This document shows, piece by piece, positions 3,012 through 47,184 of a DNA stretch of 64,000 nt (positions are counted from its first letter, which is position 1; every line of letters starts with the position of its first letter). The notes under the pieces were generated by a model. It did no database searches. It worked only from the letters and a program-made list of their open reading frames with translations, and was not told where the DNA came from. The DNA comes from an uncultured Candidatus Binatia bacterium (lineage in GTDB: Bacteria; Desulfobacterota; Binatia; UBA9968; JAJDTQ01). The position numbers and the translations under genes were made by a program. The DNA is taken from positions 384,001 to 448,000 of the forward strand of contig OZ244070.1 in assembly GCA_965215605.1 (NCBI GenBank). The letters run 5' to 3'.

Positions 3012-3227
3012 TCACTGTGATGGGCCAGGACTCACGCGACCCGCCGCTGACAACCGTTCCTTGAGGGACTTGAATCCAGACTCGTTCAGGCCGGTCGCTT
3101 CCTCGATCACGTCCCAACTCACGCCGGCGCGCAAAAAGCCTTCGACGGTTTTCAACTGTCCGAGCCGTTCGCCTTCGACCCGGCCCTTTGCTTCGCCCTC
3201 CGCCAGAAGTTGCTGAGCGTATGACAT
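3012..3227 (-). CDS. Putative nested small RpnS antitoxin ORF (71 aa, MSYAQQLLAEG...)
   Basis: GGAGGA (3234-3239, minus strand) 6 nt before an in-frame ATG at 3227. Confidence 0.6.
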   Translation of the reverse strand: MSYAQQLLAEGEAKGRVEGERLGQLKTVEGFLRAGVSWDVIEEATGLNESGFKSLKERLSAAGRVSPGPSQ

Positions 3228-3842
3228 GATCATTCCTCCCTGCTCGTGTCCGTGTCGCCGCAGCGCATCGTCAAATGCCTCGGTGCCTGCGGTGTCCTGA
3301 GTCGCCATGACGTACAACACGAACAGTTCAAAGTAATCGATCTCTCTCTGCAAACGCAACTGGCGCAACAACTGTGCCGCCATGTCCATCGCCAACGCCA
3401 CGTGTCGCCCATACGCGGCCATCATCAACCACTGCGCGACCCGGCCCCTTGCTGCCCCTTCCACCTCGTCGGGTTTGAGATTGGTCTGGTCCAGCAGCAG
3501 ATGGGCGAACCGGGGAACCCACGGCCACTCCCGCGCCACCTCGGGGAACAGGTCCGCGAACTGGGTGGAATGCGTCCATCCGTCGCGGCCTTGGTAGAAG
3601 ACCATGGGCACGATGGGGCGAAACCAGGATGGTCCGGCGCCGTCCTGTACTCCGGTGTCCCAGTGGCTTTGTCTCAGGTTTTCGTCCACGAAGCTCCCGT
3701 CCAGGAGCTTGAGGCTGGTCCAATCCACGCGCTCCTGGAGAGCACCGGGCAACGCCGTGCGCAACAAGCCGACAGCCTCTCCTACGTCAGAGAACACCTT
3801 GCGAAACAGGCCGTCATGAGGGTGATCGACTTCATTTGCCAA
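3012..3842 (-). pseudogene. Rpn/YhgA-like recombination-promoting nuclease with in-frame deletion of the catalytic region
   Basis: HPHDGLFRKVFS, SFVDENLR, PIVPMVFYQG and C-terminal EGEAKG..EG/IEEATGL typical of Rpn; the SDLL...FEHQS segment is absent at about 3662. Confidence 0.8.
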
Positions 3843-11116: not shown

Positions 11117-12124
11117 CTAACCTCGAAACTCCGGCATCACTTCCCTGGCCAGCGCCTCCACCGTCTCCTCGTACACACTCCGGGCGGGAGTCAGCATGAC
11201 GCGCTCGACGCCGGCGTCGGCCAACTCCTCCAGGCGGGCGATGCACTCTTTCGGAGTGCCGGCGATGGCGAACCGCCGCACGAGGTAGTCGGTCAACAGC
11301 GCGGGATCCGACCGCTCCTCCATGGGTTTGGACTGATCGAAGGCGGCCATGAATCTCTTGACGCTTTCAAGCTCTTCTTCCGGAACGGTTTCCATGGTGG
11401 CCTGGAAGTTGTGGTGGACTCGATTGGCGATGCGGCGGCGCACGAGTTGGCGCGCCTCGTCGCCGTCTTCCTTGATGCACACCATGCCGGCGGCCAAGGT
11501 GGCGATCTCGTCCGGCGAGCGCCCGGCCTCGGCGGCGCCCTCGGCGATGCGCGCCAGCGCCCAACCCACGGCCCGGGGCTCCACTCCGCTCGCGACAAAG
11601 ACGCCGTCAGCCGCCCGCCCGGCCAGCCGCAGGCCCCGGGGCCCCTCCACCGCCAGGTACACCGGCGCCGGCAGGAGCCGGTAAGTCACGCGGACCCGGC
11701 CCGTGGGCGTGACCATCTCGCCGCCCTGCAACAGGTTGCGAATGGTGCGGATGCCCTCCTCGAAGTCCTTCATGCGGGTGGCCTTCCGGCCCAGGGCATA
11801 GACCGGACCGTCGCCGGTGCCGAGGCCGAGGACCGCCCGGCCGTCGGAAATCTCGTTCAGGGTGGCCGCCGAGCCCACCAACACCGTGGGTTCCTGATAC
11901 ACCATGTTGGTCACGCCCGTACCGAGCTTCAGACGGGTCGTGGCCATGGCGCAGGTAGCCAGCACCTGGAAAGGGTCCAGCGTGCTGAGCTGGCTGCAGC
12001 CGAGATAAACCCCCTCGAAGCCGAGCTCCTCCGCGTGGACCACGCGTTCCCGTATCCGTGCCACCTCCTTCACGCCGCCGTTGGGACTGTGGAGACTGAA
12101 CTGCATCTGCATGATGGACCTCAC
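11117..12124 (-). CDS. LLM-class (Mer-like) flavin/F420-dependent oxidoreductase
   Basis: AEELGFEGVY, LKLGTGVTN, GRAVLGLGTGD, LAGRAADG. Confidence 0.88.
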   Translation of the reverse strand: MRSIMQMQFSLHSPNGGVKEVARIRERVVHAEELGFEGVYLGCSQLSTLDPFQVLATCAMATTRLKLGTGVTNMVYQEPTVLVGSAATLNEISDGRAVLGLGTGDGPVYALGRKATRMKDFEEGIRTIRNLLQGGEMVTPTGRVRVTYRLLPAPVYLAVEGPRGLRLAGRAADGVFVASGVEPRAVGWALARIAEGAAEAGRSPDEIATLAAGMVCIKEDGDEARQLVRRRIANRVHHNFQATMETVPEEELESVKRFMAAFDQSKPMEERSDPALLTDYLVRRFAIAGTPKECIARLEELADAGVERVMLTPARSVYEETVEALAREVMPEFRG

Positions 12125-12282
12125 GACCGCGGTGTTGAACCTTGAAGTTTCACCCCGACTTTGAAAAGCTCCCCCAAATCGATGGACATTGTCATCCGCG
12201 CATCCGCATCATATCTGCCGCAACGGGCCGATGCAAAAACGCACTTGCGCAAAGAGAAGCGCCGTCACCCTTCACCGCGCAG

Positions 12283-12492
12283 GCGCGTGTTCTCCAGCAT
12301 GCTGGGCACATGCGGGCAGCCGGTGTGCTCGGCGAGCAGATTGCGCAGGAAGGGCTGGCCCACCAGCGCCGGCAGGAGCCAGAGCTACAACAGCGCCGCG
12401 GTCCCGGAGAGGATCGAGACCGCGGCCGCGGCGGAGTATACGGCGAGGAACCACCGGGCTTCCCGCGCCACCGCGTTCCGCGCCGACGGCGC
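12283..12492 (-). pseudogene. Relic of a membrane fatty-acid desaturase (MocD-like)
   Basis: Manual translation: AREARWFLAVY...ALL*LWLLPALVGQPFLRNLLAEHTGCPHVPSMLENTR with internal TAG at 12385-12387. Confidence 0.65.
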
Positions 12493-12525
12493 CCGCCGGG
12501 AACCAATATCACGGAGGAACCCACC

Positions 12526-13518
12526 TTGGGAAATCTCTCACTGACCCTGGCCACCGGCCCGTATGACCGGGTCGAAGCCATCGTCAAGGGCGTGGTCCGG
12601 CCCGAAGGAATCGACGTCACCTGCCTGCAGATCCAGTCGCCGCCGGAGATCTTCACCCGCATGATGAAGACCCGGGCCTTCGACCTGTGCGAAATGTCAC
12701 TGTCCACCTACCTGACCCGGCGGTCCCGGGGATCGTTTCCGTTCATCGCGTTGCCGGTGTTCCCGTCGCGGCTCTTTCGCCATGCCTACATATACGTGAA
12801 CCGGGACCAGAGCATCGTCGAGCCCGGGGATCTCAACGGCAAGCGCGTCGGGGTCCAGGAGTACGGCCAGACCGCGGCGGTGTGGGTCCGCGGCATCCTC
12901 CAGCACAGGCACGGAGTCGATCTCGCCACCATTCAGTGGGTGGAAGGCGGCGTCAACACGCCGCGGCCGCCTGATGACGAGATGGATCTCCGGCCGGTGA
13001 GCGGTCTGGAGATCGAGCCGGCGCCGGCGGACAAGTCCATCAACGACCTGCTGGTGGAGGGCGGCATAGCGGCCTACCTGGGCGCGCGGCAACCCGACGC
13101 CCTCGGGACGCATCCGGACATCGTCCGGCTGTTCCCCGACTACCGCCGGACGGAACGGGACTATTTCCGGGAAACCGGCATCTTTCCCATCATGCATACC
13201 ATCGTCATGCGGGAGGAGCTTCACGAGCGGCACCCGTGGATCGCGGAGAGCATGTTCAAGGCGTTTGAAGCAGCCAAGGCATGGGTGCTGGAGCACATGC
13301 GCTTCACCGGTGCCATGATGTACATGGTCCCGTGGCTCAACGCCGAGGTGGACGAGATCCGCGAGCTGTTCGGCGGCGACCCCTACCCCTACGGCGTGGA
13401 GGCCAACCGCAACAACCTGGACACGTTCATGCAGTATCTCGTGGAGCAGGGGTTCGTGGCGGAGCCGAGGCCGGCGCTGGAGGATCTGTTCACGCCCATC
13501 GTGGGATGGGCGGAATAA
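12526..13518 (+). CDS. Second 4,5-dihydroxyphthalate decarboxylase-like protein
   Basis: FDLCEMSLS, LPVFPSRLFRH, GVQEYGQTAAVW, GDPYPYG; TTG start behind GGAGGA. Confidence 0.85.
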   Translation: MGNLSLTLATGPYDRVEAIVKGVVRPEGIDVTCLQIQSPPEIFTRMMKTRAFDLCEMSLSTYLTRRSRGSFPFIALPVFPSRLFRHAYIYVNRDQSIVEPGDLNGKRVGVQEYGQTAAVWVRGILQHRHGVDLATIQWVEGGVNTPRPPDDEMDLRPVSGLEIEPAPADKSINDLLVEGGIAAYLGARQPDALGTHPDIVRLFPDYRRTERDYFRETGIFPIMHTIVMREELHERHPWIAESMFKAFEAAKAWVLEHMRFTGAMMYMVPWLNAEVDEIRELFGGDPYPYGVEANRNNLDTFMQYLVEQGFVAEPRPALEDLFTPIVGWAE

Positions 13519-13673
13519 CCGGGCGGCCTGCTACGAGTCCCCGTCCCACCGCCGCCCCTGGAGACCTGCGACCCGCCTTGACACCTTCGCGACGGAAGGC
13601 GTAGAAGGATTCCAACATGCGGGTTCCCGTATTCTGCGGCGAACCCAAACCCTGTTTCCGAAGGAGTCGTATC

Positions 13674-14174
13674 ATGAGCCACACGTTAGAGCAGTTCGCG
13701 GCAGACTGTCACCGCATCCTCAAGGCGGAGCCCGGCCCCGAAGGACGCCAGAAGGTCGTTTCGCTGGTCGAGGAGATATGCCAGGACGAGGAATTCATCA
13801 ACACGCATGTTGAAGAGGACCAACCGGAGCGGAAAGTGATCTATGAGGATGACGAGCTCGGGTTCTGCATACTGGCCCACCACAACAAGGGCTCCAAGGG
13901 GAGCAATCCCCACGACCACGGCCCGGCCTGGGCCATCTATGGCCAAGCCTCGGGCGAGACCGAGATGACCGACTGGGAGAAGGTCGAGCCCGCGGAGGAA
14001 GGCAAGAAGGGCAAGGCCCGCAAGCTGCGCACCTATACCCTCAAACCCGGCATGGCCCATCTGTACAATGAAGGAGACCTTCACTCGCCCTGGCGCGCGG
14101 ACACCACCAAGCTGATCCGCATCGAGGGCAAGAACATGGCGAAGGTGAAACGTTATCCCTACGAGGCGATCTGA
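13674..14174 (+). CDS. Cysteine dioxygenase-like cupin
   Basis: PHDHG..WAIYG and GDLHSP three-His pattern; AAGGAG RBS. Confidence 0.75.
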   Translation: MSHTLEQFAADCHRILKAEPGPEGRQKVVSLVEEICQDEEFINTHVEEDQPERKVIYEDDELGFCILAHHNKGSKGSNPHDHGPAWAIYGQASGETEMTDWEKVEPAEEGKKGKARKLRTYTLKPGMAHLYNEGDLHSPWRADTTKLIRIEGKNMAKVKRYPYEAI

Positions 14175-18245: not shown

Positions 18246-18479
18246 GGATCCCTCTTTCGTTTGGAACGTTGAGCGTCTACCACAAAACCGGATCGCGATG
18301 CACGGCAAGCAGCCGCTTCCAGGCCCCTGACGTCACTTGCCACCGGCTCGACGGGGACGTCTCCCCTCTTTCGTTTCGGGTTTCGAGGGTCTACTATGGA
18401 AATGTATCACAACGCGCCGCGCGCCGTATCCGGCGCGGCCCCCGTGGGCGATTCCGCCCGTGGTGAAGGGAGTTGCACG

Positions 18480-19493
18480 ATGAACGATAACGTGGTCTCG
18501 ACCCCAACCCAGGAACGATGCGTCACCTCCTACGCGGCGCGCACCCAGTACAAGCCGGGAGTAGTCCATCCCGGCCACGTCAAGGTCAAGGACGCCATCG
18601 ACATCCACTGCCACGCCCACGCCGGCCAGCAGGACGCTCTCGACTTGGTGAAGAAGGCGTCCCGGGCCGAAATGAAGGGCATCCTGTTCAAGTCCATCGT
18701 CGGTAACGCGGGGAAGGCGGTCCGAGAGCTCCAGCAGCAGCTCGACGAGTGGGCGGCCCAGGAGGGCGTTGCGTCGGCGGCCCTGTTCGCCGGCTTCGTG
18801 TGCGGCCGGAACGACGATCCGGTGTCGGCCGAGTTGGCCGAGAAGGCCATCGACGGCGGCGTCGTGGCCCTGTGGCTGCCGGTTTTCAATCACGCCAACA
18901 CCATGCACATCGTGGGAAGCCGCCGGGAGCTCATCGAGCACGACATGAACGCCCGGGGCTGGATCGGCCCCCTGTCCTGGGAGAAGGCGCTGGAACACGG
19001 CCGCTACAATCTCGACGACTCGGGTGAGCTGAAGCCGGAGGTGCGCGACATCATCCGCCTGTGCGTGGAACGCGACGCGGCGCTTTTCTTCGGCCATCCC
19101 ACCCACAAGGAGATCTTCAAGATCGCCGAGGAAGGTCACAAGGCCGGCCTCAGGCGGATGGTCATCGACCACCCCTACAGCCCGTTTCTGGACGTCTCGG
19201 TGGAGCAGATGAAGGAGCTGGCCCCGCTGGGGGTGCTGTTCAACTTCACCTTCGACGAGCTATCGCCACTCCTCGGCGTCGACCCCCAGATCATGTACAA
19301 CACCATCCGGGAGGTCGGGGTGGAACACTTCGCCCTTTCCAGCGACGCCGGCGAACCCCTGTTCCCGGACTCCGTAGAAGCCATGCGCCTGATCCGGGGC
19401 TACATGGAAGCCTTCGGCCTGACGCAGGACGAGCTCCACACCGTTTGCACCGTCAACCCCGCCAAGGTGCTCGGCATGGAACTGGATAGCTGA
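18480..19493 (+). CDS. DUF6282-like amidohydrolase/TIM-barrel protein
   Basis: AIDIHCH, FFGH, VIDHP, LSSDAG, NPAKVLG. Confidence 0.7.
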   Translation: MNDNVVSTPTQERCVTSYAARTQYKPGVVHPGHVKVKDAIDIHCHAHAGQQDALDLVKKASRAEMKGILFKSIVGNAGKAVRELQQQLDEWAAQEGVASAALFAGFVCGRNDDPVSAELAEKAIDGGVVALWLPVFNHANTMHIVGSRRELIEHDMNARGWIGPLSWEKALEHGRYNLDDSGELKPEVRDIIRLCVERDAALFFGHPTHKEIFKIAEEGHKAGLRRMVIDHPYSPFLDVSVEQMKELAPLGVLFNFTFDELSPLLGVDPQIMYNTIREVGVEHFALSSDAGEPLFPDSVEAMRLIRGYMEAFGLTQDELHTVCTVNPAKVLGMELDS

Positions 19494-19717
19494 CTTCCGC
19501 CGTATTCCGACCTTCACCGCACCCTCCTGCCCGTCCGCGCCCAAATTGTGCGCCTCCCGGGCGCTGAACCCTAAAGTTCGGCGCCCACCGACCGATTAGT
19601 ATAGCTGTAGGCGCCGCTGTGGCCTCGACCGCCGAGGCGGCACAGGCAGACGTCCGACACGTGCCGGCTACGGAACTCCGGCGGGCACGGCGGACCGGGC
19701 TCGAGCCGGGAGGTCCC

Positions 19718-20602
19718 ATGAGCATATCGCGTTCTTCCACGCCGCCCCTGATCGGCATCGGTTTCCGCGTTCCCATCGCCAAGTGGACGCTGGCCAACCT
19801 GCACCGTTTCGACGTCCTCGAGATCACCGTGGACCACTACATAAAGGGAGGCGAGCACGCCCGCAAGGCGATCCGCAACCTCGTGGACCGGATACCGCTG
19901 GTGCTGCATGGCGTGGGCCTTTCCATCGGCACCGACGCGCCACTCGACGAGGCGTACCTGGACGGCGTGGCGGAAGCCGTCGAAGACCTGAAGACGCCTT
20001 CCTACAGCGAGCATCTGGCGTGGACCAAGGTGCCGGGCATCGACATTGCCAACCTGCTGCCCGTGCCCAAGACCCGCGCCGCCGCCGACATGCTCATCCC
20101 CAAGATCCGGCAGGTGCAGGCCCGTTTGCCGGTCCCCTTTTCCATCGAGAACATTTCCTACGTCTTCGACTTCCCGGAAGCGGATATGAGCGAGGCCGAG
20201 TTTTTCAACCTGCTGTTCCGGGAAACCGGCGTGGGCATGCTCCTGGATGTCGAGAACCTGTTCGTCAACTCCCGGAACCATGCCATCGACCCGCGGGCGT
20301 TCCTGGACGCGCTGCCCGAGACGGTGGTGACCCACGTGCACGCGGCCGGGGGGCCGCTGATTCGCCGGCCTTACCTGGATGCGCCGTTCCATGCCGACAA
20401 CCACAGCAGTCCGGTACCGGAACAGGCTTTGGACCTGCTGGCGCACGCCCTCCGCCGGCAACGCCCGCGCACGATAATCCTGGAGCGCGACAACGACGTC
20501 GACCGGGGCGACGAGCTTCTGGACGACGTGACGCGCATTCGGCTGCAAGCGGCCAACGCCGGCGGAGAAGAAAGGCCCGACACCCATGAACAAGCTCCTT
20601 GA
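19718..20602 (+). CDS. DUF692 / multinuclear non-heme iron oxidative enzyme (MNIO; MbnB/TglH/ChrH family)
   Basis: GIGFR, LHGVGLSIG, YSEHLAW, IENISY, LLDVENL, HVHAAG, ADNHS, ILERD; GGGAGG RBS. Confidence 0.93.
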   Translation: MSISRSSTPPLIGIGFRVPIAKWTLANLHRFDVLEITVDHYIKGGEHARKAIRNLVDRIPLVLHGVGLSIGTDAPLDEAYLDGVAEAVEDLKTPSYSEHLAWTKVPGIDIANLLPVPKTRAAADMLIPKIRQVQARLPVPFSIENISYVFDFPEADMSEAEFFNLLFRETGVGMLLDVENLFVNSRNHAIDPRAFLDALPETVVTHVHAAGGPLIRRPYLDAPFHADNHSSPVPEQALDLLAHALRRQRPRTIILERDNDVDRGDELLDDVTRIRLQAANAGGEERPDTHEQAP

Positions 20603-21326
20603 AAGACAGACCCGCCTGCTTCGCCATCTGACCAGCCAAGCCTTCATCTTCGGCACCGACGGGCTTGGCGTAGCGGCCCGGGACCCCGGTCTCCGGGGCA
20701 TGGACATCCGGCGTCTGCGGCTGGAGGCGGAATTCTCCTACAACAAGCGGATCAAGCGGATTCGCCAGACCTTCGAGCGCACCGCCGCCCTGCTCGGTCA
20801 CGGCTTCTCGGCCATCACACGCGAATTTGCCGCGTTGCATCCACCCGAGACCTACGAGCGCCATCCGGACGCACAACGTTTCTTCGACCATTTCATGGAA
20901 CACTGGGCTCGCAAACCGTCCACGCCGGCCTGGGCCGCGGACGTGGCGACGGTGGAGTTGGCCTTGTCCCGTGCCCGGACGCTCCGGCCTACGACCATGG
21001 AGACCGCGGCCCTGGCGGAATGCCCGAGGCCGCCCTCTCTACGGTATCGCACCCATCCATGCGCCCTGTTGGTGCGTTGCGGGCACGACGTGCGGCCCCT
21101 GTTCGAGCCCGGCCGTTCCGGCGCGCCGGTCACACAGCGGCAGGTCTGCCTCGCCGTCCTGACCTCTCGTGGGCGCCGGCGGCCCACGGTCATGGAGCTT
21201 GCGCCGGAAGCCTTTGCGCTGCTGGAACGTTCCACGGAATGGTCGGCGCCGGAACCGGCGGTTGAGGCCATGACCAGGCACCTTGCCGCGCAGGGCCTGG
21301 TACTGGCGTGCGGCAACCATGGCTGA
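20586..21326 (+). CDS. MNIO partner protein (DUF2063/RRE-like)
   Basis: Overlaps MNIO stop; TFERTAALLG..FSAITREFAALHPP and WAADVATVELALSRA resemble DUF2063 partners. Confidence 0.7.
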   Translation: MNKLLERQTRLLRHLTSQAFIFGTDGLGVAARDPGLRGMDIRRLRLEAEFSYNKRIKRIRQTFERTAALLGHGFSAITREFAALHPPETYERHPDAQRFFDHFMEHWARKPSTPAWAADVATVELALSRARTLRPTTMETAALAECPRPPSLRYRTHPCALLVRCGHDVRPLFEPGRSGAPVTQRQVCLAVLTSRGRRRPTVMELAPEAFALLERSTEWSAPEPAVEAMTRHLAAQGLVLACGNHG

Positions 21327-23181
21327 GGTCAACGGGCTGGCGGGCTGGTCCGTGGGGGGCGCCACGCGCCACGCGGAATCCTCAGCGGACGGAGCCTTCA
21401 CTCTCCGTTCCATCGCCGCGCATCTGCTCGCCAACAAGACCGTCTTCGGGCCGTTGGTGGCGGCGTCCTTCTTCATCAATCTGCTGGGCTACATCTACCC
21501 TTTCGCCTTCCTCATCATCATCGACAAGGTCATCTCCAACCGAGGCGCCGCCACCCTCGACGTCATCATCGTGAGCCTGGTCTTCTTTCTGGTCTTCGAG
21601 GCGGTCCTGCGCGGCGCCCGCCACAAGGCCCTGCGCCACGCGGTGCGGGACATGGACCACTCGCTGCTTTCGAGGCTCATCCGCCATTCCCTGGAGTTGC
21701 CGGTCTCCTTCTACTTTCGCAACACCCCGGTGGAGACCCTCTCCCGCATCGAAGAGTTGCGCTATCTGCGGCGCTTCCTTACCAACGCCGTGGTGTTCGT
21801 GTTCGTGGACATCGTCTTCGTGCTGGTGTTCCTGGCGCTGATGCTGAACTTCAGCTTCGCCCTGTCCATGATCATCCTGGGCTGCCTGCCGCTCTATATC
21901 GCGCCGGCCTTCGTCGTCATGCCCACGTTGCGGCAATGGAGCCAGCGGACCAAGGACAGCCGGCGGGAGAGCAACGAGGCCGTGCTCGACACCTTCAACG
22001 GCATCGAAACGGTCAAGGGGATGCACCGGGAGGAAGCCCAGGAGACGTTCCTGACCCAGCGGGTGGACGACGCCGTATCCTCCGACGACGACGCCCAGGA
22101 CCTGCGCGACTCGATGACCCAGTACAACCAGTTCGTGAACCGCCTGGCCAGCGCAGGCCTGCTCTGGTTCGGCGCCTCCATGGTGCTGGACGGACAACTC
22201 ACCCTGGGACAGCTCGTCGCCGTCAACCTGGTGAACATGCGGTTCTCCCAGCCCATGATGCGTCTTTGCATGTTCACCTATGACTTCTCGCGGCTCCGGG
22301 GCCTCATCCGGGAGGTGGGGACCGTCCTGGATGAGCCCGCGGAGCGGCAGCGCGGCCATCTCGTCACGTTGCCCTCCCTGGAGGGCACAATCCAGTTCGA
22401 CAGCGTCCGTTTCCGCTACCCGGACGCGCGCCGTGATGCCCTGGCCGGTGTGACCTTCGAGATCAAGCCCGGCGAGACCCTGGGAATCGTGGGTCCGTCG
22501 GGCTCGGGGAAGAGCACCGTGGCCCGCCTGATTCAGAGGCTGCATCTGGCCGCGGAGGGGCGTGTTCTGCTGGACGGCGCGGACGCCGCGGTGCTGGACC
22601 CGGCCTGGCTCCGCGGCCACATCGGCGCGGTGGAGCAGGACTATCCGATGTTTCGGCGCAGCATCGCCGAAAACATCGCCCTGGAGCCCGCGGAGCACCA
22701 CATGGCCCGGGTGATGGCCGCGGCCAAAGCGGCCTGCGCCCACGAGTTCATCACCCGCACTCCCAAGGGATACGACACCCGGGTCGGCGCCCGGGGCGCG
22801 ATCTTGTCGGGTGGAGAACGGCAACGCATCGCGCTGGCCCGGGCGCTGTTCCACTCCAAGAGCGTGTTGATCCTGGATGAAGCCACCAGTTCGGTGGACC
22901 AGGAGGACGAAGGCCGGATCCAGGAAAACGTCCGGCGGCTCGCCAGCGGACGGACCACCATCATCATCGCCCATCGGTTGTCCGCCCTCCGTTACGCCGA
23001 CCGCATCGTCTGCATGGACCGGGGAGAGGTGGTGGAGCAGGGCGCGCCCGGGGAACTGGTCCAAGGCGACGGATATTTTTCCCGCATGGTACGCGGCGAG
23101 GCCACGCTGCTCCAGGAGTTGGTGCAGAGGCGGCCGGCGGCCGAAGCCACACAAGCCGCCGTGGAGGCGCGGGATGGATAA
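21319..23181 (+). CDS. Type I secretion ABC transporter (HlyB-like permease/ATPase, no C39 domain)
   Basis: ASFFINLL..IIDKVI membrane start, GQLTLGQLVA, GPSGSGKST, LSGGERQR, ILDEATS, IIAHRLS. Confidence 0.92.
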   Translation: MAEVNGLAGWSVGGATRHAESSADGAFTLRSIAAHLLANKTVFGPLVAASFFINLLGYIYPFAFLIIIDKVISNRGAATLDVIIVSLVFFLVFEAVLRGARHKALRHAVRDMDHSLLSRLIRHSLELPVSFYFRNTPVETLSRIEELRYLRRFLTNAVVFVFVDIVFVLVFLALMLNFSFALSMIILGCLPLYIAPAFVVMPTLRQWSQRTKDSRRESNEAVLDTFNGIETVKGMHREEAQETFLTQRVDDAVSSDDDAQDLRDSMTQYNQFVNRLASAGLLWFGASMVLDGQLTLGQLVAVNLVNMRFSQPMMRLCMFTYDFSRLRGLIREVGTVLDEPAERQRGHLVTLPSLEGTIQFDSVRFRYPDARRDALAGVTFEIKPGETLGIVGPSGSGKSTVARLIQRLHLAAEGRVLLDGADAAVLDPAWLRGHIGAVEQDYPMFRRSIAENIALEPAEHHMARVMAAAKAACAHEFITRTPKGYDTRVGARGAILSGGERQRIALARALFHSKSVLILDEATSSVDQEDEGRIQENVRRLASGRTTIIIAHRLSALRYADRIVCMDRGEVVEQGAPGELVQGDGYFSRMVRGEATLLQELVQRRPAAEATQAAVEARDG

Positions 23182-24496
23182 AGGCCGACCGCGCGCGCAA
23201 GCCGTCCTGCTGGTCTCTCTCTGCGCCTTCCTCGTCGGGGCGCTGGCATGGGCCTCCATCGCCGAGGTGGAGCTGGCGGCCATGGCCTCGGGACGCATCG
23301 TTCCGCACGGCCAGGTGAAGACGGTCCGTTCCTTCGAACACGGGAAGATCAAGCAGATCGCGGTGGAGGAAGGGAGCGTCGTCAGCAAGGGCGACGTGCT
23401 CGTGGAGCTTGACGCCACCCTGGTGGACGCGGAAGTCGCCAAGCACGCGTCGGAGCTCGGCACCAAGTCGGTGGAGGCTGCCCGCCTGGAAGCGCTTCTG
23501 GGCTGGCGACGGAGCGAACCGTTCCGGCCGCCTCCGGATGCGCCTGCGGAAATCGTCTCCATCAACGAAAGGCTCCTGGCGGATCAGATTGCCTCCCACC
23601 GAGCGCGCCTCCGCGAGCTGGACGGCATGATCGCGGAACGCCAAGCCCGGCTGCGGACGCTCGGAGCCGGGCTTGCCAAGTACGAACGGCTGCTGCCCAT
23701 CCTGCGCGAGAGGACGCGGATGCGGGAGACCCTCTACCGGAAGGACCACGGCTCCAGGCTCGAGCTCTTCAAGGAGCAGGAGCGGCTGGTGGAGCTCGAA
23801 GGAGACCTGGCCCTTGGCAGGGAGGAGCTGGCCCAGGCCGAAGCCTCCCTCGCCTCCCTTCGGGCGCAAAGGCAACAAACCCGTTCCGAGTTCGACCGGG
23901 AGCACCGTGCGGCCCTCGCCGCCGTGCGGGAAAGAATGATCGTTTTGCGCCAGGACATCCGCCAGGCGCGGGAGCACCGCGCCCGGCACGTCCTGGTGTC
24001 TCCGGTGGACGGGGTGGTGCAGGATCTGGCCGTGCACACGGAGAACGGCATGGTGGAGCCGGGCGCGCGCCTCATGGTCATCGTACCCCGAAACGCCGGC
24101 ATCCGGGTCGAGGCCTTGATTGCCAACGCCGACATCGGCTTCATCAAACCGGGCCAGCGGGTCGCCTTGAGGGTCACCAGCTTCGACTTCCGCCGGTACG
24201 GCGCGCTCCAGGGAACGGTGAGCCACCTGGGCGAGGACGCCGTGAACGCCGGAACGCAAGCCGGCGGCCATTCGCCCGCGGTAGCGGCCGCGCCACCCGA
24301 CGCCCGCGCGACCGGCCCGATGTTCAAGGCCGTCATCGAGCTGGACCAGGACTACATGGAGGTCGAGGGACGGACGATCCCTCTCGTGCCCGGCATGACC
24401 GCGGAAGCGGCGGTGATCCTGGGCAAGCAGCGCGTCATCGACTACGTCCTGTTGCCGCTTCGCGGCTACCGGCAGGACGCGTTCCGGGAAAAATAA
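23174..24496 (+). CDS. HlyD-family type I secretion periplasmic adaptor
   Basis: N-terminal TM, ASGRIVP, VEEGSVVSKGDVLVELD, coiled coil, SPVDGVV, DIGFIKPGQ, LVPGMTA. Confidence 0.92.
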   Translation: MDKGRPRAQAVLLVSLCAFLVGALAWASIAEVELAAMASGRIVPHGQVKTVRSFEHGKIKQIAVEEGSVVSKGDVLVELDATLVDAEVAKHASELGTKSVEAARLEALLGWRRSEPFRPPPDAPAEIVSINERLLADQIASHRARLRELDGMIAERQARLRTLGAGLAKYERLLPILRERTRMRETLYRKDHGSRLELFKEQERLVELEGDLALGREELAQAEASLASLRAQRQQTRSEFDREHRAALAAVRERMIVLRQDIRQAREHRARHVLVSPVDGVVQDLAVHTENGMVEPGARLMVIVPRNAGIRVEALIANADIGFIKPGQRVALRVTSFDFRRYGALQGTVSHLGEDAVNAGTQAGGHSPAVAAAPPDARATGPMFKAVIELDQDYMEVEGRTIPLVPGMTAEAAVILGKQRVIDYVLLPLRGYRQDAFREK

Positions 24497-24522
24497 CACT
24501 GTCACGCACGGAGGCAACGCTG

Positions 24523-25497
24523 ATGAACGACAAGGTCGAAGAGTTCCCCAGAGCAACGGACCCGGCGGCATGGACGCCGGAGGACATCGAGCGGTCGGCG
24601 GCCTGGCGCCACGCTTTCACCGGGCGCGAAGCGGCCGAGTTGCGGGCGGTGGCAAGAAACGACGCCACCGGAGAGGGACCGCCCCTCCGGGTCCTCGCTC
24701 CGCAGTTGGAGCAGACGGCACGGGAGCTGGCGTCAGGCGTGGGTTTCCGCGTGCTTCGCGGCTTCCCGGTGAAGGAGCTGGGCCAGGAAGGCACCCCAAA
24801 GGCATTCATGGCCCTGAGCCGGGGGCTCGGTTGCCCCATGGAGCAACCGGGAGGAGTCGAACTCGCCCACGTGCGCGCCGACGCCAAGGGACGCAAGGGC
24901 TTCGGCTTTCGCGCCGCCGGAGAGCTTCCTTTCCACGCGGACCTCGAAGACGTCATCGGGTTCCTGTGCGTCAGGCCCGCTTCCGGAGGCGGCACGCGCA
25001 GGTTCGCCAGCGCCGTCACCGTGTACAACATCATGCGGGACGAGCACCCGGACGAGTTGCGGGTGCTCATGCAACCCTTTCACATGGCGCTGCAACAGCC
25101 CCATCCGGACCACGGGCAGAAGTGGACGCGCCTCCCTTTCCTCGGCGTCCGGGAAGGGGTGTTCACTGCCTGCGCCTACCCCGTCCATATCAAGCGGGCG
25201 CAGGCCCTTGCCGGGGTTCCCGAACTGACCCCCGCGCAGACCCAAGCGTTGGCTGCCTTCAACGACGTGGCCGGCCGGGCGGCGGTTTCCATGGAGTTGA
25301 AGCCCGGCGACGTGGAGTATTTCAACAACCACGTGGTCCTGCATACCCGGTCCGAGTTCTCCGAGGACCGTGGACCCGGTCGCCACCTGCTGCGGGTCTG
25401 GCTGTCCATGAGCCGCTTCCGGCCGCTGCATGCAGAGCATCCCATCAGCCTCCGGGCCAGGACTCCGGTTGCCGAGGGCGGGCCGAAGCCAGGGTAA
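24523..25497 (+). CDS. TauD/TfdA (clavaminate synthase-like) Fe(II)/2-oxoglutarate oxygenase
   Basis: FHAD...NNHVVLHTR...RHLLRVWL; GGAGG RBS. Confidence 0.88.
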   Translation: MNDKVEEFPRATDPAAWTPEDIERSAAWRHAFTGREAAELRAVARNDATGEGPPLRVLAPQLEQTARELASGVGFRVLRGFPVKELGQEGTPKAFMALSRGLGCPMEQPGGVELAHVRADAKGRKGFGFRAAGELPFHADLEDVIGFLCVRPASGGGTRRFASAVTVYNIMRDEHPDELRVLMQPFHMALQQPHPDHGQKWTRLPFLGVREGVFTACAYPVHIKRAQALAGVPELTPAQTQALAAFNDVAGRAAVSMELKPGDVEYFNNHVVLHTRSEFSEDRGPGRHLLRVWLSMSRFRPLHAEHPISLRARTPVAEGGPKPG

Positions 25498-25500
25498 CTC

Positions 25501-26220
25501 ATGGACCTGGGCATCAAGGGCAGGCGGGCGCTGGTCCTGGGGGGCTCCCGGGGCATCGGCCGCGCGGTGGCCGGCGCCCTCGCCGCCGACGGGGCGGAGG
25601 TGGCGGTCTGCGCCCGGAAGGAATGGGCGGCGAAGAGGGTCGCTTCCGAAGCCGCCCAGGACTGCGGGGTCAGAGCTGCGGGCTACCGCATCGACGCTTG
25701 GGACGAGGAGTCCGCCGTTGCCCTCGTCAACCGCATCGCCAGCGACTTCGGCGCCATCGATCTGCTGTTCGGGGTGGCCCGGCGTCCCTCGCTGGAAGAC
25801 AGGCAGCGGCTGTCGTGGAAGCAGCGGCTCGACGACGGCTTCCTCCGCTTCAAGGCAACCACCGAAACCCTCCTGCCGGGCATGCGGGAGCGGCGATGGG
25901 GCCGCGTGCTGTGGATGGTACCGTGGCCCGCGCCGGGGACCAGCTCGGAAAGGCAGCTTCACGCGGTGACCGCCGCCGCGTTGTCGGCCTGGCTCCAGGT
26001 GATGGCCGCCGAGGCGGCCGAGGACAATGTCGTCCTGAACGTGCTGAAGCCCGCGCCGGTGTCGAGGACCTCGGGGCGCGGTTGCGACGAACCGCGGACG
26101 GGCTCCCGCCATCCGGCCCCGGGCGATTCCCTTTCAGTGTCCCAAGTGGCGGCGACAGCCGCCTTTCTACTCGGCGACCCGGCCGGCGCATGGCGCGGCA
26201 AGGTCATCGAGCTCGGGTGA
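25501..26220 (+). CDS. Atypical SDR-family oxidoreductase
   Basis: MDLGIKGRRALVLGGSRGIG Rossmann motif; no YxxxK. Confidence 0.8.
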   Translation: MDLGIKGRRALVLGGSRGIGRAVAGALAADGAEVAVCARKEWAAKRVASEAAQDCGVRAAGYRIDAWDEESAVALVNRIASDFGAIDLLFGVARRPSLEDRQRLSWKQRLDDGFLRFKATTETLLPGMRERRWGRVLWMVPWPAPGTSSERQLHAVTAAALSAWLQVMAAEAAEDNVVLNVLKPAPVSRTSGRGCDEPRTGSRHPAPGDSLSVSQVAATAAFLLGDPAGAWRGKVIELG

Positions 26221-26236: not shown

Positions 26237-27097
26237 TCAGTAACCCTGGTCGAGGATCCAGTTGGCGATCTCGATCCTCCTGGCGAACCAGACGTCGGAG
26301 AAGCCCTTGGCGTACTTGATGAACTCGTCGATGATCTTGGTCCGGTAGGGCACGCCGGATACGAACGGATGGAGGTTGAACGCGAAGAACTTCGGCGCTC
26401 CCTGCTCTCCTTCCCAGTACAGGTAGTCGAACTGGTCCTTCATGATCTGGAGGAGATCCCTGGGCGTGCGCCCGCCGCCGTAGGTGGAGTAGTCGTTGCA
26501 GCCAGGCACGTTATAGGGCACCACCGCGACCTTGCGGCCCCCCGCCTCGACGGTATAGGGGACGTCCGAATTCAGAGGATCGGCCCACCACACGAAGCCC
26601 GCTTCCGCCACCAGCTCCAGGGTGTTGTCGGTGGACGCGTGACCCGGCGACAGGTAGCCCGTGGGCGGCGCCCCGAGCACATTCTTGAAAGCGGCAACGG
26701 TGTCCTGGATCGACTTCCGCTCCTCCTCCCTAGTGTACATGAAGGCGTACTCGTGCTCGTAGCACTCCGAGGAGAACTCGTGCCCCTGGGCCTGGAACTC
26801 CTTGCACTCGTCGGGGAACTGCTCGACCTTCTTGCCGTTCATGAGGAATGTGGCCTTGAGGTTGTGCCGCTCGAACATGTCCATGATGCGCCAGATGCCC
26901 ACCCGGTCGCCATACTCGCGCTCGGTCACCGCGGCCATGTTCTGCTTGAAGACCGCGTTCTCCGGCGGCAGCGGATGGCTGACCCGCTGAAGCGAGCCGC
27001 GGGTGGCGTAGTTGTCGGGCCATACTTCCCAGGGGATGATGAAAGTGACGCATATCTTGGCGTTGTCCGGCCACTGGATGGGGCTCGGTCTGGGCAT
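26237..27097 (-). CDS. Polysaccharide deacetylase family (PuuE-like) protein
   Basis: WPDNAK, EYGDRVGIWRI, FDYLYWEG, LHPFVSGVPYR; AGGAG RBS. Confidence 0.87.
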   Translation of the reverse strand: MPRPSPIQWPDNAKICVTFIIPWEVWPDNYATRGSLQRVSHPLPPENAVFKQNMAAVTEREYGDRVGIWRIMDMFERHNLKATFLMNGKKVEQFPDECKEFQAQGHEFSSECYEHEYAFMYTREEERKSIQDTVAAFKNVLGAPPTGYLSPGHASTDNTLELVAEAGFVWWADPLNSDVPYTVEAGGRKVAVVPYNVPGCNDYSTYGGGRTPRDLLQIMKDQFDYLYWEGEQGAPKFFAFNLHPFVSGVPYRTKIIDEFIKYAKGFSDVWFARRIEIANWILDQGY

Positions 27098-27314
27098 GGT
27101 GAAATCTCCTCTCGTCCGATGTTGCTGAAATTCGGTGCACAGGCCTGCGGAAGGCAGTGTAGCCCCAACTATAACCAGTGCGGATTTGTGGGGCAAACAG
27201 GTGCCACGACCGCCGCGGTGACAACCGGAAACTGTTGATTTTCATAGCTGCAGCGGTAAAGGTTATCGCCAGGAAACGTACCATGGCGAACGGAATGGAA
27301 GAGCGGATGACCGG

Positions 27315-31636: not shown

Positions 31637-31703
31637 CCGTCATTCCCGCGAAAGCGGGAATCCAGGAGTTGGGAGGGGATTCCCGCTTTCGCGGGAATGG
31701 CGG
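31637..31703. repeat. Paired inverted dRS3/REP-like palindromes
   Basis: ccgtcattcccgcgaaagcgggaatcc (31637-31663) and its near-perfect reverse complement (31677-31703), each ATTCCC-N8-GGGAAT. Confidence 0.8.
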
Positions 31704-31743
31704 AGAGGGACGTGGGAATCACGAGCGGCGCACCCAGAGAAGA

Positions 31744-33462
31744 ATGATGAGCAGCAGAACCGCCACACAAGTCCCGGGAACCTCTTCCCGAATCGACCCC
31801 ATCACCCTCGAGGTGATCCGTTGCGGCGTCGTTTCCATCACCAACCAGATCGACGCCAACATCACGCGCACGGCGTTCAGTTCCTACGTCTACGAGTACA
31901 AGGACTTCGCCGTCGGACTGGTGGACGTGAACGGGCAGCTCGTGGCCCAGTCGACCGGGGGCATGCCGCCCTTCGTCGCCGATGCCGTGGGCACCGCGGT
32001 GCGCGACGGCCTGAAGATATATGGGCGCGAAAGGCTCTTCGATGGGGACGTGGTGGTCTGCAACCACCCGGCGGTGCAGGGACAGCACCTCAACAACACG
32101 GTGATGTACACGCCCATCTACGGCGGCCCGGACCGCGGGACGTTGCTGGGGTTCTTCGCCCTCAACGTCCACTGGATCGACATCGGCGGGGTGATGCACG
32201 GCTCCACCGACATCTTCATGGAAGGACTGCAGCTCCGCATCATCAAGCTCTGGTCAAAAGGGGAGCCCGTCGAGGAAGTATACCGCATCATCGAGAACAA
32301 CACGCGGATGCCGGTGGACGTCATGGGCGACATCTCGGCACAGCTCGCCGGCTGTTTCCTGGGGCGCGATCTCACCCTGGCGCTTGCCGACAAGTATGGC
32401 GCCGACACCTACTTCGCCGCGGTGGAGACGATCATGGCCCAAGGCGAAGCGTCGTCACGCGCGCGCATCCGGGACATCCCGGACGGGACCTATGAAAGCG
32501 AAGCGTTCCTGGACGACGACTCCCTGGGCACCGAGCCGGTGCCCATCCGGGTCAAGGTCGTCGTCGACGGCGAGGAGATGACCATCGATTTCTCTGGCCT
32601 CGCCGACCAGGTGCCGGGGCCGCTCAACTCGGGCTACTTCGGCGGCGGCGTCACCGTGGCGCGGGTCGCCTTCAAGTACCTGATCACTCCGCGGGAGCCG
32701 GCCAACGAAGGCGTATTCCGTCCGCTCAAGCTGATCCTGCCGGAGGGCAAGATCCTGAGCGCCCGGCCCGACGCTCCCATGTCCAACTACTCGGCGCCCT
32801 TTCCCACGGTCATCGACTGTCTCTCGGACGCGCTTCCGCGTCTCGCGACCGGAGCCCATTTCGGCACTCATTCGGGGTTCATGATGCATGGCCGCTGGGC
32901 CGACGGAAGCCGCTTTCACGGCCATGACAGCGGCCACGGGGGCTGAGGCGCGGGCGACGGACACGACGGCGCCGGGCCGTTCCGGACCATGGCCCACGGC
33001 GACACGCGCCTCATCCCCATGGAGTTGCAGGAGTCCCTGCTGCCGTTCCGCGTGTGTTCGCTTGCCTTGCGCGAGGATTCGGGCGGGCCCGGCAAGTTCC
33101 GGGGCGGGCTCGGCTTCCGCAAGGAATATGAGATCCTCCATCCTTGCACCCTCAACACCAACCTCGACCGCAGGAAGTGTCCGCCATGGGGCGTGCGCGG
33201 CGGCAAGGCGGCGAAGACGGGCTGCGTCACCATCATCAAGGCATCGGGCAAGACGGAGAGCATGGGCAAGGCGCAGAACTACAAGCTCCAACCCGGCGAC
33301 CGGGTGATCCTCGAAACCGGCGGCGGCGGCGGGTGGGGACCGCCCGAGGAGCGCGCCGTCGAGTTGATCCAGCGCGACCTCGACCGCGGCTACATCACGC
33401 CCGATGGCGCCGCTCGCGACTACGGCGTCCGTGTCGACGCCGGCCGGGTGTTGCGCGGGTAG
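31744..33462 (+). pseudogene. Hydantoinase/oxoprolinase subunit B with in-frame TGA at 32944
   Basis: DPITLEVI, GQHLNN, HWIDIGG; GHGG*GA then same frame continues to DSGGPGKFRGGLG and TGGGGGWG. Confidence 0.85.
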
Positions 33463-44041: not shown

Positions 44042-44802
44042 ATGGCCCGCGCGCCCCGATTGGACTTCGGCCTCTACGCCAACAACCGCGCGTCGGTATT
44101 CCTGCCGGACTTCTCCATGGAGGGGTTGCTGGATCTGGCCGTGGAGGCCGAAGATCTCGGCTACCACTCCCTCTGGGTCGGCGACAGCATCCTGGCCAAG
44201 CCCCGTTACGATCCCGTCGTGACCCTGACGGCCATCGCCGCGCGGACCAAGGACATCAAGCTGGCCACGGGGATCCTGCAACCGCACATGAGGAATCCGG
44301 TGGTGCTGGCCCTGGAGTGGGCCACCCTGGATCTCGTATCCAAGGGTGGCACCATCATGGGCGTGGGACCCGGCGCCGGTCCGCCGGAACTGCTCTCCAA
44401 GGAATGCGAGGTGGCCGGGTTCGAGCGGCGGGTCAGGGGCAGGGTCTTCGAGGAGTGCCTGGAAGTGCTGAAGGCGCTGTGGACGCTCGACTCGGTGAAC
44501 TTCGAGGGCCGCCACTACCGCTACCGGGACGTATCGCTGGGATACAAACCGGTCCAACAGCCCCATCCGCCCATCTGGATCGCCGCCGGCCACTACAACC
44601 CGAAGCCTACCACCGCATGCCATTCGACGACGAGAGCGTGGACCGGTGGGTGATCTGCGGCACCGCCCTGGAGTGCATCGAACGCCTGGAAGAGTTCGCG
44701 GCGGCGGGCGTCCGCACCATGCAGATCGTGCTGGCGTCCAGGGATCAGCCCGAGCAGATGCGGCGCATCGCCGCCGACGTTCTTCCCGCCTTCCGCGGTT
44801 GA
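44042..44802 (+). pseudogene. LLM oxidoreductase with internal deletion and frameshift near 44603
   Basis: N-part ends at PPIWIAAGHYNPK; C-part EAYHRMPF...GTALECIERL...ADVLPAFRG in another frame. Confidence 0.8.
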
Positions 44803-44859: not shown

Positions 44860-45525
44860 ATGAATGAAAGCAGTTCATGGGAGCGAGGCAGGCGATTGAG
44901 GATGACAGGAGCGCTACCCTACCCCCTCACCCTGGAAGACACGGAGAGGGACGTGGTGCGACGGGTCCGGGACGGCGATTCGGACGCCTACCGGCTCCTG
45001 GTGGAGCGCCACCAGGCGCGCGTGCACCGGCTGGTGGGGAGGCTCCTCGGGCCGGATCACGGCGACGTGGACGACGTGGTCCAGGAGGTGTTCGTCAAGG
45101 CGTACTTCTCGCTGAGCAAGTTTCGTGAAGACGCGGCGTTCGGCACCTGGATCACGCGTATCGCCATCAACCGCGCGCGGGACGAGCTCAAGAAACAAGC
45201 GGGCAAGGTTTCCCTGGACGCGGAGCCCGGGGAAGAGGCCGTCCGGGGCCTGCACGACATCCTCTCCGCCGAAGAGCCTCCTGACGAAGAGAGACAGGAA
45301 GCCTCGGAGGCCGCCGTCGGCCGCCTGGTGACCCGCACCGTGGCGGGCCTGCCCGATCACTTGCGCATCGTCACAACCTTGAAGGACATGGAGGGGCACT
45401 CCTATAAGGAAGTCGCCGGCATGTTGAAGTGTTCGGTGGGCACTGTGAAATCGCGTCACGCACGGGCGCGCCAGCGCCTGCGGCAGGCGTTGGCCCCGCA
45501 TGTCTTGGTCGGAGGTGATTCGTGA
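44860..45525 (+). CDS. ECF RNA polymerase sigma factor (start may be ATG 44902)
   Basis: DDVVQEVF, FGTWITRIAIN, SYKEVAGMLKCSVGTVKSR. Confidence 0.93.
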   Translation: MNESSSWERGRRLRMTGALPYPLTLEDTERDVVRRVRDGDSDAYRLLVERHQARVHRLVGRLLGPDHGDVDDVVQEVFVKAYFSLSKFREDAAFGTWITRIAINRARDELKKQAGKVSLDAEPGEEAVRGLHDILSAEEPPDEERQEASEAAVGRLVTRTVAGLPDHLRIVTTLKDMEGHSYKEVAGMLKCSVGTVKSRHARARQRLRQALAPHVLVGGDS

Positions 45526-45980
45526 CCTGTAAAAATTTCAGGCAATGGCTGGAAACCGCCGGCGCGATGGTCGCGGGGACCATTCCGGACACGCACAGGC
45601 AACATGCCGAGTCGTGCGCGGCCTGCCGTGCGGCCCTCGTGGAGGAGCGGACCTGGCGGCGCTTCTTCTCCGCCGCGCCGGAACCGGCCCCGGGACGGCC
45701 GGCATGGCCGGGGGTCATCGCCAGAATCCGCGAGGAAGAAAGCCGGCGCTCGTCGCTCAGCGACGCGCTGCTGCTCTTCAGCCGGCGGCTCGCACCGGCC
45801 TTCGCCCTGGTGGTGTTGTGCCTGGGCGGCGTCGGCCTGTGGCGTGACATGCTGCCGGAGACCCCGGAGCAGGTCCCCGCCACCGTCGCCATGCTGGAGA
45901 ACGCATCGGGCCAGGAGGCATTGTCCGCGGACGAACCCGACGCGGTCCTGATCGCGTGGGTAGGAGCTCGGAGACCATGA
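45522..45980 (+). CDS. Putative anti-sigma factor
   Basis: C..H...CAAC zinc motif plus one TM; GTGA overlap with sigma. Confidence 0.75.
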   Translation: MTCKNFRQWLETAGAMVAGTIPDTHRQHAESCAACRAALVEERTWRRFFSAAPEPAPGRPAWPGVIARIREEESRRSSLSDALLLFSRRLAPAFALVVLCLGGVGLWRDMLPETPEQVPATVAMLENASGQEALSADEPDAVLIAWVGARRP

Positions 45981-46429: not shown

Positions 46430-46511
46430 CGGGGGACCGGGAACCGGGGGGCGTCTAATCCGTGACACAGCGATCCGGATCGAACCACTCAAACAAGAAG
46501 GAGAACGACAA

Positions 46512-47048: not shown

Positions 47049-47070
47049 GCACCCCGGTTCGTCAATCATC

Positions 47071-47109
47071 GGAGGGGGCAGCCGTAGAGGCTGCCCCCCT
47101 CCTTTCTTT
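47071..47109 (+). terminator. Rho-independent terminator
   Basis: ggagggggcagcc-gtaga-ggctgcccccctcc followed by tttcttt. Confidence 0.75.
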
Positions 47110-47184
47110 CGCCGGTTGTCAAAGAAGCGGCAACCCGTCTAAAGTGATTCCTGTCGCACCGGCGTCTTACAACCTCGACACTTC

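Follow-up and report, generated by a model that had tools for sequence, protein, structure and literature searches.

In the known systems, enzymes of the MNIO (DUF692) family act on precursors exported by the Sec pathway, as for the bufferins and captophorins (BufABC, FonABC and HvfABC), or make small peptides. The bufferin report describes that BufB, together with BufC, converts cysteines to 5-thiooxazoles, and that bufferins carry a Sec signal peptide (PMC11626156). In Gadgil et al., FonB favors the Cys-Gly dyad and 5-thiooxazole chemistry is assigned to a large MNIO-PME1 group for which Cys-Gly is the preferred context (PMC13097082). In both papers, 5-thiooxazoles are recognized by 4 Da lost per cysteine and by absorbance near 305 nm. 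Another class of partner proteins, PME-type 2, has an NGO1945/TglI-like fold without a DUF2063 signature, according to the MNIO landscape paper (PMC12452194). The same paper introduces adjamnio-I (Antoine et al. 2025), a group of 100 putative precursors of 122–293 residues with 8 to 21 cysteines and no signal peptide, encoded in the order precursor – MNIO – PME-type 2 (PMC12452194). Here, we describe an operon of six genes (19718..26220, plus strand) within a 64,000 nt stretch of contig OZ244070.1 (positions 384,001 to 448,000; assembly GCA_965215605.1) from an uncultured Candidatus Binatia bacterium, in the following called the window. What appears to be new in this operon is that an MNIO-partner pair is wired to a HlyB/HlyD-type exporter. 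Our preferred reading, held with moderate confidence, is that the operon serves to mature and export Cys-Gly-repeat proteins whose genes lie elsewhere in the genome.

The six co-oriented open reading frames (ORFs) each possess an ATG start and a stop codon. The MNIO gene (19718..20602, 294 aa) is followed by the genes for its partner (20586..21326, 246 aa), an HlyB-type ATP-binding cassette (ABC) exporter without the N-terminal domain (21319..23181, 620 aa), an HlyD-family membrane fusion (periplasmic adaptor) protein (23174..24496, 440 aa), a TauD/TfdA-family Fe(II)/2-oxoglutarate oxygenase (24523..25497, 324 aa; in the following called TauD) and a protein with the fold of short-chain dehydrogenases/reductases (SDR; 25501..26220, 239 aa). 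The junctions along the operon are overlaps of 17 nt (MNIO/partner), 8 nt and again 8 nt (ABC/HlyD), followed by gaps of 26 and 3 nt. An initial annotation made from the sequence alone had listed this gene set, and its coordinates, overlaps and gaps were reproduced exactly. Next to the SDR gene follows a polysaccharide deacetylase gene in opposite orientation (26237-27196), while on the other side a DUF6282 gene (18396-19493) lies 224 nt before the MNIO gene; the opposite strand downstream and the spacer upstream delimit the unit to exactly these six genes. DUF6282 was also considered as a substrate or member of the system and was ruled out, as it is part of the conserved chromosomal flank and has no counterpart in the second-copy loci described below. 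Purifying selection acts on all six genes, with ratios of nonsynonymous to synonymous substitution rates (dN/dS) of 0.10–0.34, each determined against 4 to 6 orthologs taken from the related loci L001, L024, L022, L002, L020 and L003.

The MNIO protein matches PF05114 over profile positions 2-259 of 263 (E 4.4e-75, 252.8 bits, cut-off 25) and shows a dN/dS of 0.10–0.17. The motifs HG, SEHL, EN, LDVEN, HAAG, DNH and ERD are invariant across 16 family members, as are the residues H40, H64, E98, H99, E144, D177, E179, N180, H208, D227, H229 and E256 in the comparison with 16 relatives. These invariant residues, presumed to include the iron ligands, fall in blocks aligned with 3BWW, TglH and MbnB. 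Among solved structures, 3BWW is nearest (2.3e-43), then TglH (8.1e-22), then MbnB. The best NCBIfam models are those of BufB (210.6 bits, cut-off 310) and HvfB (188 bits, cut-off 360). Hence, the enzyme resembles those of bufferins and captophorins in its best models and nearest structure, but it remains under both cut-offs. The MbnB model of methanobactin synthesis, TIGR04159, gave 43.8 bits versus a cut-off of 325.

For the partner, the match to Pfam DUF2063 (E 0.0018, 19 bits) missed the curated cut-off of 27.2, NCBIfam yielded no match, no match to MbnC was found and a sequence search of the PDB returned nothing even at E 10. Its AlphaFold model (predicted local distance difference test, pLDDT, 89.3; predicted template modeling score, pTM, 0.84) has a helical, DUF2063-like N-terminal half and a beta/helix C-terminal half resembling a recognition element (RRE) for peptides that ribosomes synthesize and that are modified post-translationally (RiPPs), similar to the domains of NGO1945. 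Searching with this model by Foldseek, the sole PDB matches at E ≤ 0.001 were TglI (8hi7_A, 1.3e-5), NGO1945 (3dee, 2.4e-4) and again TglI (8hci_A), at 12–14% sequence identity to TglI. Because these structural matches offset the weak DUF2063 score, we kept the identification as MNIO partner. With its predicted fold and its gene directly after that for the MNIO, an order shared with bufferins and captophorins, the protein fits the PME-type 2 definition of PMC12452194.

The ABC protein matches ABC_membrane (1.4e-35) and ABC_tran (6e-30), and Walker A, signature motif, Walker B and H-loop are readable in its translation. The best NCBIfam model is TIGR01846 (type_I_sec_HlyB), with 541.5 bits, below the cut-off of 725.55, over profile positions 115-690 of 694. 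The missing N-terminal part corresponds to a domain of ~130 extra residues present in 12 related loci and absent from the window protein and from 15 of 27 loci; a hidden Markov model (HMM) of this domain built from the relatives matches the window ABC at the linker alone. The window protein retains the first residues (MAEVNG.AG; MAEGNGWAG in L003) as well as the linker before the membrane domain, so that the domain appears to have been lost by an internal, in-frame deletion. Among the related loci, the domain was apparently lost more than once; in L015, counted among the 12, it is split by a frameshift. For the full-length ABC protein of L020, HlyB is the top PDB match, and a deletion removes the His of the DGRHF motif found in HlyB. 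Since the profile of the isolated domain gave no significant PDB match (HlyB 3zua, E 0.74), we call it HlyB-like (C39-like) by its position and by partial full-length alignments only. Pfam Peptidase_C39 matched neither the window ABC nor the two full-length relatives tested.

HlyD scored 341 bits with TIGR01843 (type_I_hlyD), above the cut-off of 208.65, matches Pfam HlyD_3 (7.5e-19), HlyD_D23 and Biotin_lipoyl_2, and has a hydrophobic N-terminal helix in its translation. The pair thus resembles the HlyB-HlyD-TolC system in its best-scoring models and in the 8 nt overlap of ABC and adaptor genes, but differs by the ABC protein lacking its N-terminal C39-like domain and staying under the TIGR01846 cut-off, and by the absence of an RTX substrate and of a TolC gene from the window.

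The oxygenase TauD matches PF02668 with E 5.3e-31 and 108.9 bits (cut-off 27). Its HxD motif (FHADLED) and distal His (VLHTR) are present and align with 7n7v, a ‘predicted hydroxylase’ (5.1e-33), which together with FrbJ (5eqn, 2.6e-21) represents its only PDB relatives. The profiles for PF05114, HlyD and TauD thus bore out the family assignments of the initial annotation, whereas DUF2063 fell short of its threshold and was replaced by the TglI/NGO1945 fold. The last protein matches adh_short (E 3.9e-22) and adh_short_C2 and keeps the Gly-rich dinucleotide motif GGSRGIG. When aligned to FabG, however, its catalytic Ser, Tyr and Lys appear as Pro, His and Ala, respectively. Ser and Lys are replaced in all 24 of 24 orthologs and Tyr is kept in four, at a dN/dS of 0.23–0.34. 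The SDR-fold protein is therefore probably dead as an oxidoreductase, or works in an unusual way, judged from its residues, and the role of a tailoring enzyme previously assigned to it is not supported, given the missing Ser and Lys.

To delineate the family, we scanned one genome per species and obtained 30 loci, nearly all from Candidatus Binatia or similarly labeled metagenome-assembled genomes (MAGs), and compared the related loci with 24 window proteins by tblastn. The following counts cover 28 loci with an MNIO at least 57% identical. The partner gene is found in 28/28, the ABC gene in 26/28 and the SDR gene in 23/28 loci. Nine other loci, in two different genomic contexts, have all six genes in the same order. 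The recurrence of MNIO-partner-ABC and of the complete order makes the arrangement more than chance. HlyD and TauD occur in 10 of the 27 assessable loci (L021 ends inside the ABC gene and was left out) and in 15 of 27 the ABC gene stands without either, which identifies both as accessory to an MNIO-partner-ABC core. The postulated placement of an MNIO-partner pair in one operon with a HlyB/HlyD-type exporter and a TauD-type oxygenase was thus supported and is repeated in relatives; of the neighborhood expected for close MNIO homologs, the ABC linkage stood and that to HlyD and TauD was broken in more than half of the loci.

The window operon occupies a fixed chromosomal site, with luciferase-like and DUF6282 genes on one side and deacetylase and transglycosylase genes on the other. 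This core site is common to 21 other loci (22 with the window). In an MNIO tree of 29 rows, the window belongs to a supported group of seven core loci, all with HlyD and TauD. Four chromosomes carry a second copy elsewhere (L015, L018, L020 and L021), adjoining phage terminase or transposase genes. The full cassettes in L015, L020, L021 and L025 additionally encode an S9 peptidase, of which the window has none.

Looking at the second copies individually, genes for the large subunit of phage terminase lie just upstream of the cassettes in L018 (8550-9500) and L020 (6029-8086), which suggests that the complete cassette travels with mobile DNA. L021 (489-3907 and 5300-6451) contains two tandem cassettes separated by a DDE transposase, the first consisting of a precursor C-terminal fragment, MNIO, partner and the start of an ABC gene including the N-terminal domain, the second being complete. 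The cassette in L015 (9282-9827 and 11512-12578) looks damaged, with the ABC N-terminal domain spread across two reading frames and a precursor matching P0134 at 98% from which the first ~70 residues, i.e., leader and Cys-Gly core, are gone; alternatively, this may be a repeat assembly error.

Substrate candidates emerged from a search for alternating Cys patterns in six frames of all locus sequences. We found ORFs reading ...LDLDLEVHGCGCGCGCGC... in four loci, all with a leader and a CGCGCG core (HMM E 1e-20 to 1e-9); in L020 the ORF lies directly upstream of the MNIO gene, whereas L021, L025 and L028 have it nearby. In general, a leader of ~32 residues (W...LDLE[IV]HG) precedes a (Cys-Gly)n/(Cys-Ser)n core, which an acidic linker joins to a variable C-terminal part. 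Among 25 precursor sequences, W17, L26, L28, H31 and G32 do not vary, nor do the first Cys and Gly residues. Lengths range from 110 to over 310 residues. The proteins are acidic, and their N-terminus is a polar leader that does not resemble a signal peptide; for acidic, signal-less Cys-Gly-repeat precursors of this kind, a dedicated pump is a more fitting export route than Sec. Database searches with the precursor region returned 30 and 28 proteins, and a profile search run exhaustively over 1.84 billion representatives gave only 36 family members at E ≤ 0.001, with 27 reaching 1e-10. The precursor family is therefore real but rare, and neither Pfam nor NCBIfam holds a model for it. In one subtype, the C-terminal domain weakly matches a Hedgehog/DD-peptidase zinc fold (E 4e-4). 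A fold model of the whole precursor (alignment A6) was unusable (mean pLDDT 43.6).

These precursors sharpen the comparison with the described systems. They are rich in the Cys-Gly dyads reported as the preferred context of FonB (PMC13097082), but they carry a leader and no Sec signal peptide, in contrast to the bufferins of PMC11626156, and show contiguous CGCGCG instead of EGKCG repeats. Further differences from the bufferins are the HlyB/HlyD-type exporter, TauD and SDR-fold protein of the window operon, the S9 peptidase of full cassettes and, in the window, the lack of a DoxX gene and of a precursor upstream of the MNIO gene. The TglHI system (3-thiaglutamate, pearlin) is similar in that TglI is the top match of the partner, TglH the second PDB match of the MNIO, and the precursors have no signal peptide; it differs by the low identity to TglI, by another type of precursor and by tRNA-dependent peptide-extension genes, none of which was seen among the scanned window proteins. 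Methanobactin synthesis by MbnABC likewise combines an MNIO and a partner acting on Cys of a leader-bearing, signal-less precursor with a dedicated export pump, and presumably also shares the Cys-Gly context, but the MbnB score is far under its cut-off, the partner is not MbnC-like, the exporter belongs to another family and the precursors here have 110–310 residues or more. A peptidase-containing bacteriocin exporter (PCAT, microcin type) differs by the Peptidase_C39 domain, which found no match here, and by the leader, which in the precursor family ends in HG, unlike the double-glycine consensus GG/GA/GS. By its description in PMC12452194, adjamnio-I agrees in lengths, Cys counts and partner type; it may be the same precursor family, which could bear on novelty.

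Three further ORFs touch on the precursors. A 786-codon open frame in L028 (16065-18422) contains the leader motif and the CGCGCG core, followed by ~600 residues of Ala/Glu/Asn-rich low complexity and a Gly-rich hydrophobic C-terminus; no ATG, GTG or TTG precedes position 17883 in this frame. In L026 (9651-10004), an MNIO of 59% identity is directly preceded by a basic ORF of 117 residues, ending ...HTHACACGCGCFTHHKPGHRKRKR; this ORF contains a short Cys-Ala/Cys-Gly run, lacks the family leader (HMM E 0.68) and may be a different type of precursor. The third, in L029 (8757-9080), encodes 107 residues with a hydrophobic N-terminus and at least four Cys before a distant MNIO (32% identity, Haliea MAG), the classic bufferin layout, in contrast to the window family.

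Within the window itself, such a gene is missing. We propose a substrate acting in trans because the paralogous operons act in cis, the operon genes are conserved, and a free-standing precursor likely exists in at least one genome with a core-type locus only. This precursor, P0121, is reported on a sequence of 3,949,999 bases, the same size as the chromosome of L027, which has a single MNIO locus and no precursor within 10 kb of it.

For the trans substrate, we envisage the following mechanism. The partner would bind the ~32-residue leader, with its invariant Trp and LDLE[IV]HG motif, of a Cys-Gly-repeat precursor and offer the (Cys-Gly)n/(Cys-Ser)n tract of the precursor to the MNIO, which would oxidize the cysteines, most likely to 5-thiooxazole-type heterocycles, the product being a dense metal-binding tract. 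By analogy to the characterized enzymes, such a conversion of Cys to 5-thiooxazole by the window MNIO is likely. As guesses, TauD may add hydroxylation and the SDR-fold protein may serve as a non-catalytic, nucleotide-binding or scaffolding subunit. From their family membership, the HlyB-type ABC protein and HlyD, together with an unlinked outer-membrane channel, would export the product in one step. We thus observe the gene identities, the partner fold, the linkage, the purifying selection and the anatomy of precursors in related loci, and we infer that a substrate is used in trans, that heterocycles are formed, and that the product binds metal and is secreted; induction by copper would likewise be conjecture.

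Several observations weigh against this proposal. No precursor was detected in the 64 kb by a Cys-pattern regular expression, by the leader HMM (best E 0.38) or by tblastn with 58 family proteins, and 37 small intergenic ORFs of the window included no convincing Cys-rich candidate; the 224 nt spacer upstream of the MNIO gene holds no ORF except an in-frame extension of MNIO. The locus is therefore not the self-contained RiPP cluster suggested by the initial annotation. Nor was any precursor-family protein in the databases placed on the contig of the window, which is a weak point as the L020 and L021 precursors are missing there too. The window ABC protein lacks the N-terminal domain that is kept by all four precursor-bearing or second-copy loci with ABC sequence. 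No outer-membrane channel of the OEP/TolC family was found among the 55 window proteins scanned, though such genes are often unlinked. Accordingly, of the earlier idea that the modified product leaves by type I secretion, the HlyB/HlyD-type pump in the operon stands, while the N-terminal ABC domain and a precursor in the window are lacking. The solved relatives of TauD include FrbJ, a small-molecule enzyme. Finally, thiooxazole formation is not secure, since the MNIO is under all NCBIfam cut-offs, the partner is as TglI-like as NGO1945-like and the chemistry of TglH is different.

The strongest alternative, in our estimation rather unlikely, is that the operon at the core site lost its precursor, the S9 peptidase and the ABC N-terminal domain, was re-purposed and now modifies and exports a different, unrecognized substrate instead of a Cys-Gly-repeat protein. 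This would agree with the distribution of cis precursors, found in 0/22 core-site loci versus four intact and one shortened copy (L015) among the seven others, with the loss of the ABC N-terminal domain, apparently more than once, in 15/27 loci, with a conserved upstream element specific to the core loci and absent from the second copies (see below), and with the purifying selection still acting on all genes. Yet identity to the second copies (L015, L018, L020 and L021) stays at 77–81% for the MNIO and 65–69% for the partner, the MNIO tree separates core and second-copy groups without support (39/85), a free-standing precursor occurs in a genome with a core-type locus only, and the window offers no candidate for an alternative substrate.

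We consider it quite improbable that TauD, the SDR-fold protein and the MNIO act in a small-molecule pathway on a non-ribosomal metabolite exported by ABC/HlyD. The relatives 7n7v and FrbJ of TauD, the window without a precursor and the general knowledge that SDR and TauD families usually work on small molecules would fit such a pathway. However, the partner has the fold of the peptide-binding TglI/NGO1945, every characterized MNIO in the papers considered acts on peptides or proteins (PMC12452194), paralogous operons adjoin precursor genes and the SDR-fold protein lacks its catalytic residues. HlyB/HlyD-type pumps, moreover, are generally known to export polypeptides. Least credible of all is that the operon is what remains of a formerly complete cassette in decay, without present function: precursor, S9 peptidase and ABC N-terminal domain have all been lost and other core loci also lack HlyD and TauD or are down to three genes (L004), but the six ORFs are intact with ATG starts, dN/dS is 0.10–0.34, the locus is retained at the same site in 21 other loci and the ATPase motifs and oxygenase triad are intact.

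Returning to our preferred reading of a module working on precursors encoded elsewhere, the architecture appears unreported. Neither the text nor two supplements of the MNIO landscape paper refer to ABC, HlyD, TauD, Binatia or type I secretion (PMC12452194). Our literature search found no paper joining MNIO with HlyD, ‘secretion system’, Binatia or ‘Cys-Gly repeat’, and the motif HGCGCGC turned up a single time, in a nematode paper where it is a DNA consensus. This agrees with the previous statement that the architecture is not recognized from characterized clusters. In relatives, the proteins to which the pair is wired combine a leader and contiguous Cys-Gly repeats with C-terminal domains that are interchangeable. 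Conversion of all cysteines would give a secreted protein bearing a heterocycle tract denser than any known from ribosomal products, and would extend RiPP chemistry to protein tagging. The system also offers an opportunity to test how enzymes work on precursors whose genes are distant, a situation that cluster-based genome mining misses; the absence of a cis precursor from every core-site locus is a practical warning in this respect.

A farther-reaching version, which we put forward tentatively and regard as rather unlikely, is that several cargo proteins encoded elsewhere, each with a leader and a poly(Cys-Gly) tract, share the operon as a hub for maturation and export. If so, up to ~20 thiooxazole-type heterocycles in an unbroken row would form a tag that binds metal and is possibly redox-active, on proteins with varied C-terminal domains, some resembling Hedgehog/DD-peptidase-fold cell-wall hydrolases. 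Such a tag could be a metallophore-like address for delivery or uptake, and with the hub, type I protein secretion would gain a new branch in which proteins are RiPP-tagged.

Upstream of the operon, about 100–180 nt before the MNIO start, we detected a conserved element (19540..19616, plus strand) with the structure ..TGAAC-CCTAAAGTTCGGCGCC-ACCGA-CGATTAGTAT..TGTAGG. It is alignable in 15/15 core-locus sequences compared and absent from the four second-copy loci. Its 16 nt core occurs once in the window, versus 0.11 occurrences expected, and at the same offset in nine loci. The stretch from the element to the MNIO ATG differs among loci by indels that are not multiples of three and is therefore non-coding; for the same reason, an extension of the MNIO from GTG 19619 as a fused leader was ruled out. 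The element is probably a promoter or operator. Its TGAAC..N16..CCGA features are, we presume, similar to those of extracytoplasmic function (ECF) sigma factor promoters. A scan for the sigma-70 consensus yielded no sites. Searching the whole window with Rfam gave no matches, which places the conserved 5′ region outside known RNA families. Terminator-like sites numbered seven versus 4.2 ± 2.4 expected and were not informative.

On the plus strand, 18 kb away from the operon, several consecutive genes resemble a metal-stress module (44860-48447). By Pfam scan, the first encodes an ECF-type sigma factor (44860-45525). It is followed by two small ORFs without a Pfam match, possibly an anti-sigma pair (45522-45980 and 45956-46429), and then by the genes of a Metal_resist/LTXXQ periplasmic protein (46512-47048) and an MFS_3 exporter (47185-48447). 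Directly before this module, an ORF for a luciferase-like monooxygenase (44042-44653, 203 aa) covers profile positions 20-174 of 314 and may be truncated. A hydantoinase B/oxoprolinase is distributed over two ORFs (31669-32946, profile positions 1-373, and 32989-33462, positions 401-519), indicating a split gene or a frameshift. Toward the start of the window, an ORF of 850 residues (420-2972) has no Pfam match at E 1e-5, and a gene for a YhgA-like Transposase_31 (3012-3842, minus strand) adjoins a stretch up to 4279 with atypical GC content by codon position. Three ORFs of 244, 458 and 185 aa (11411-14174) likewise have no Pfam match at E 1e-5 and are conserved in the flanks of related loci.

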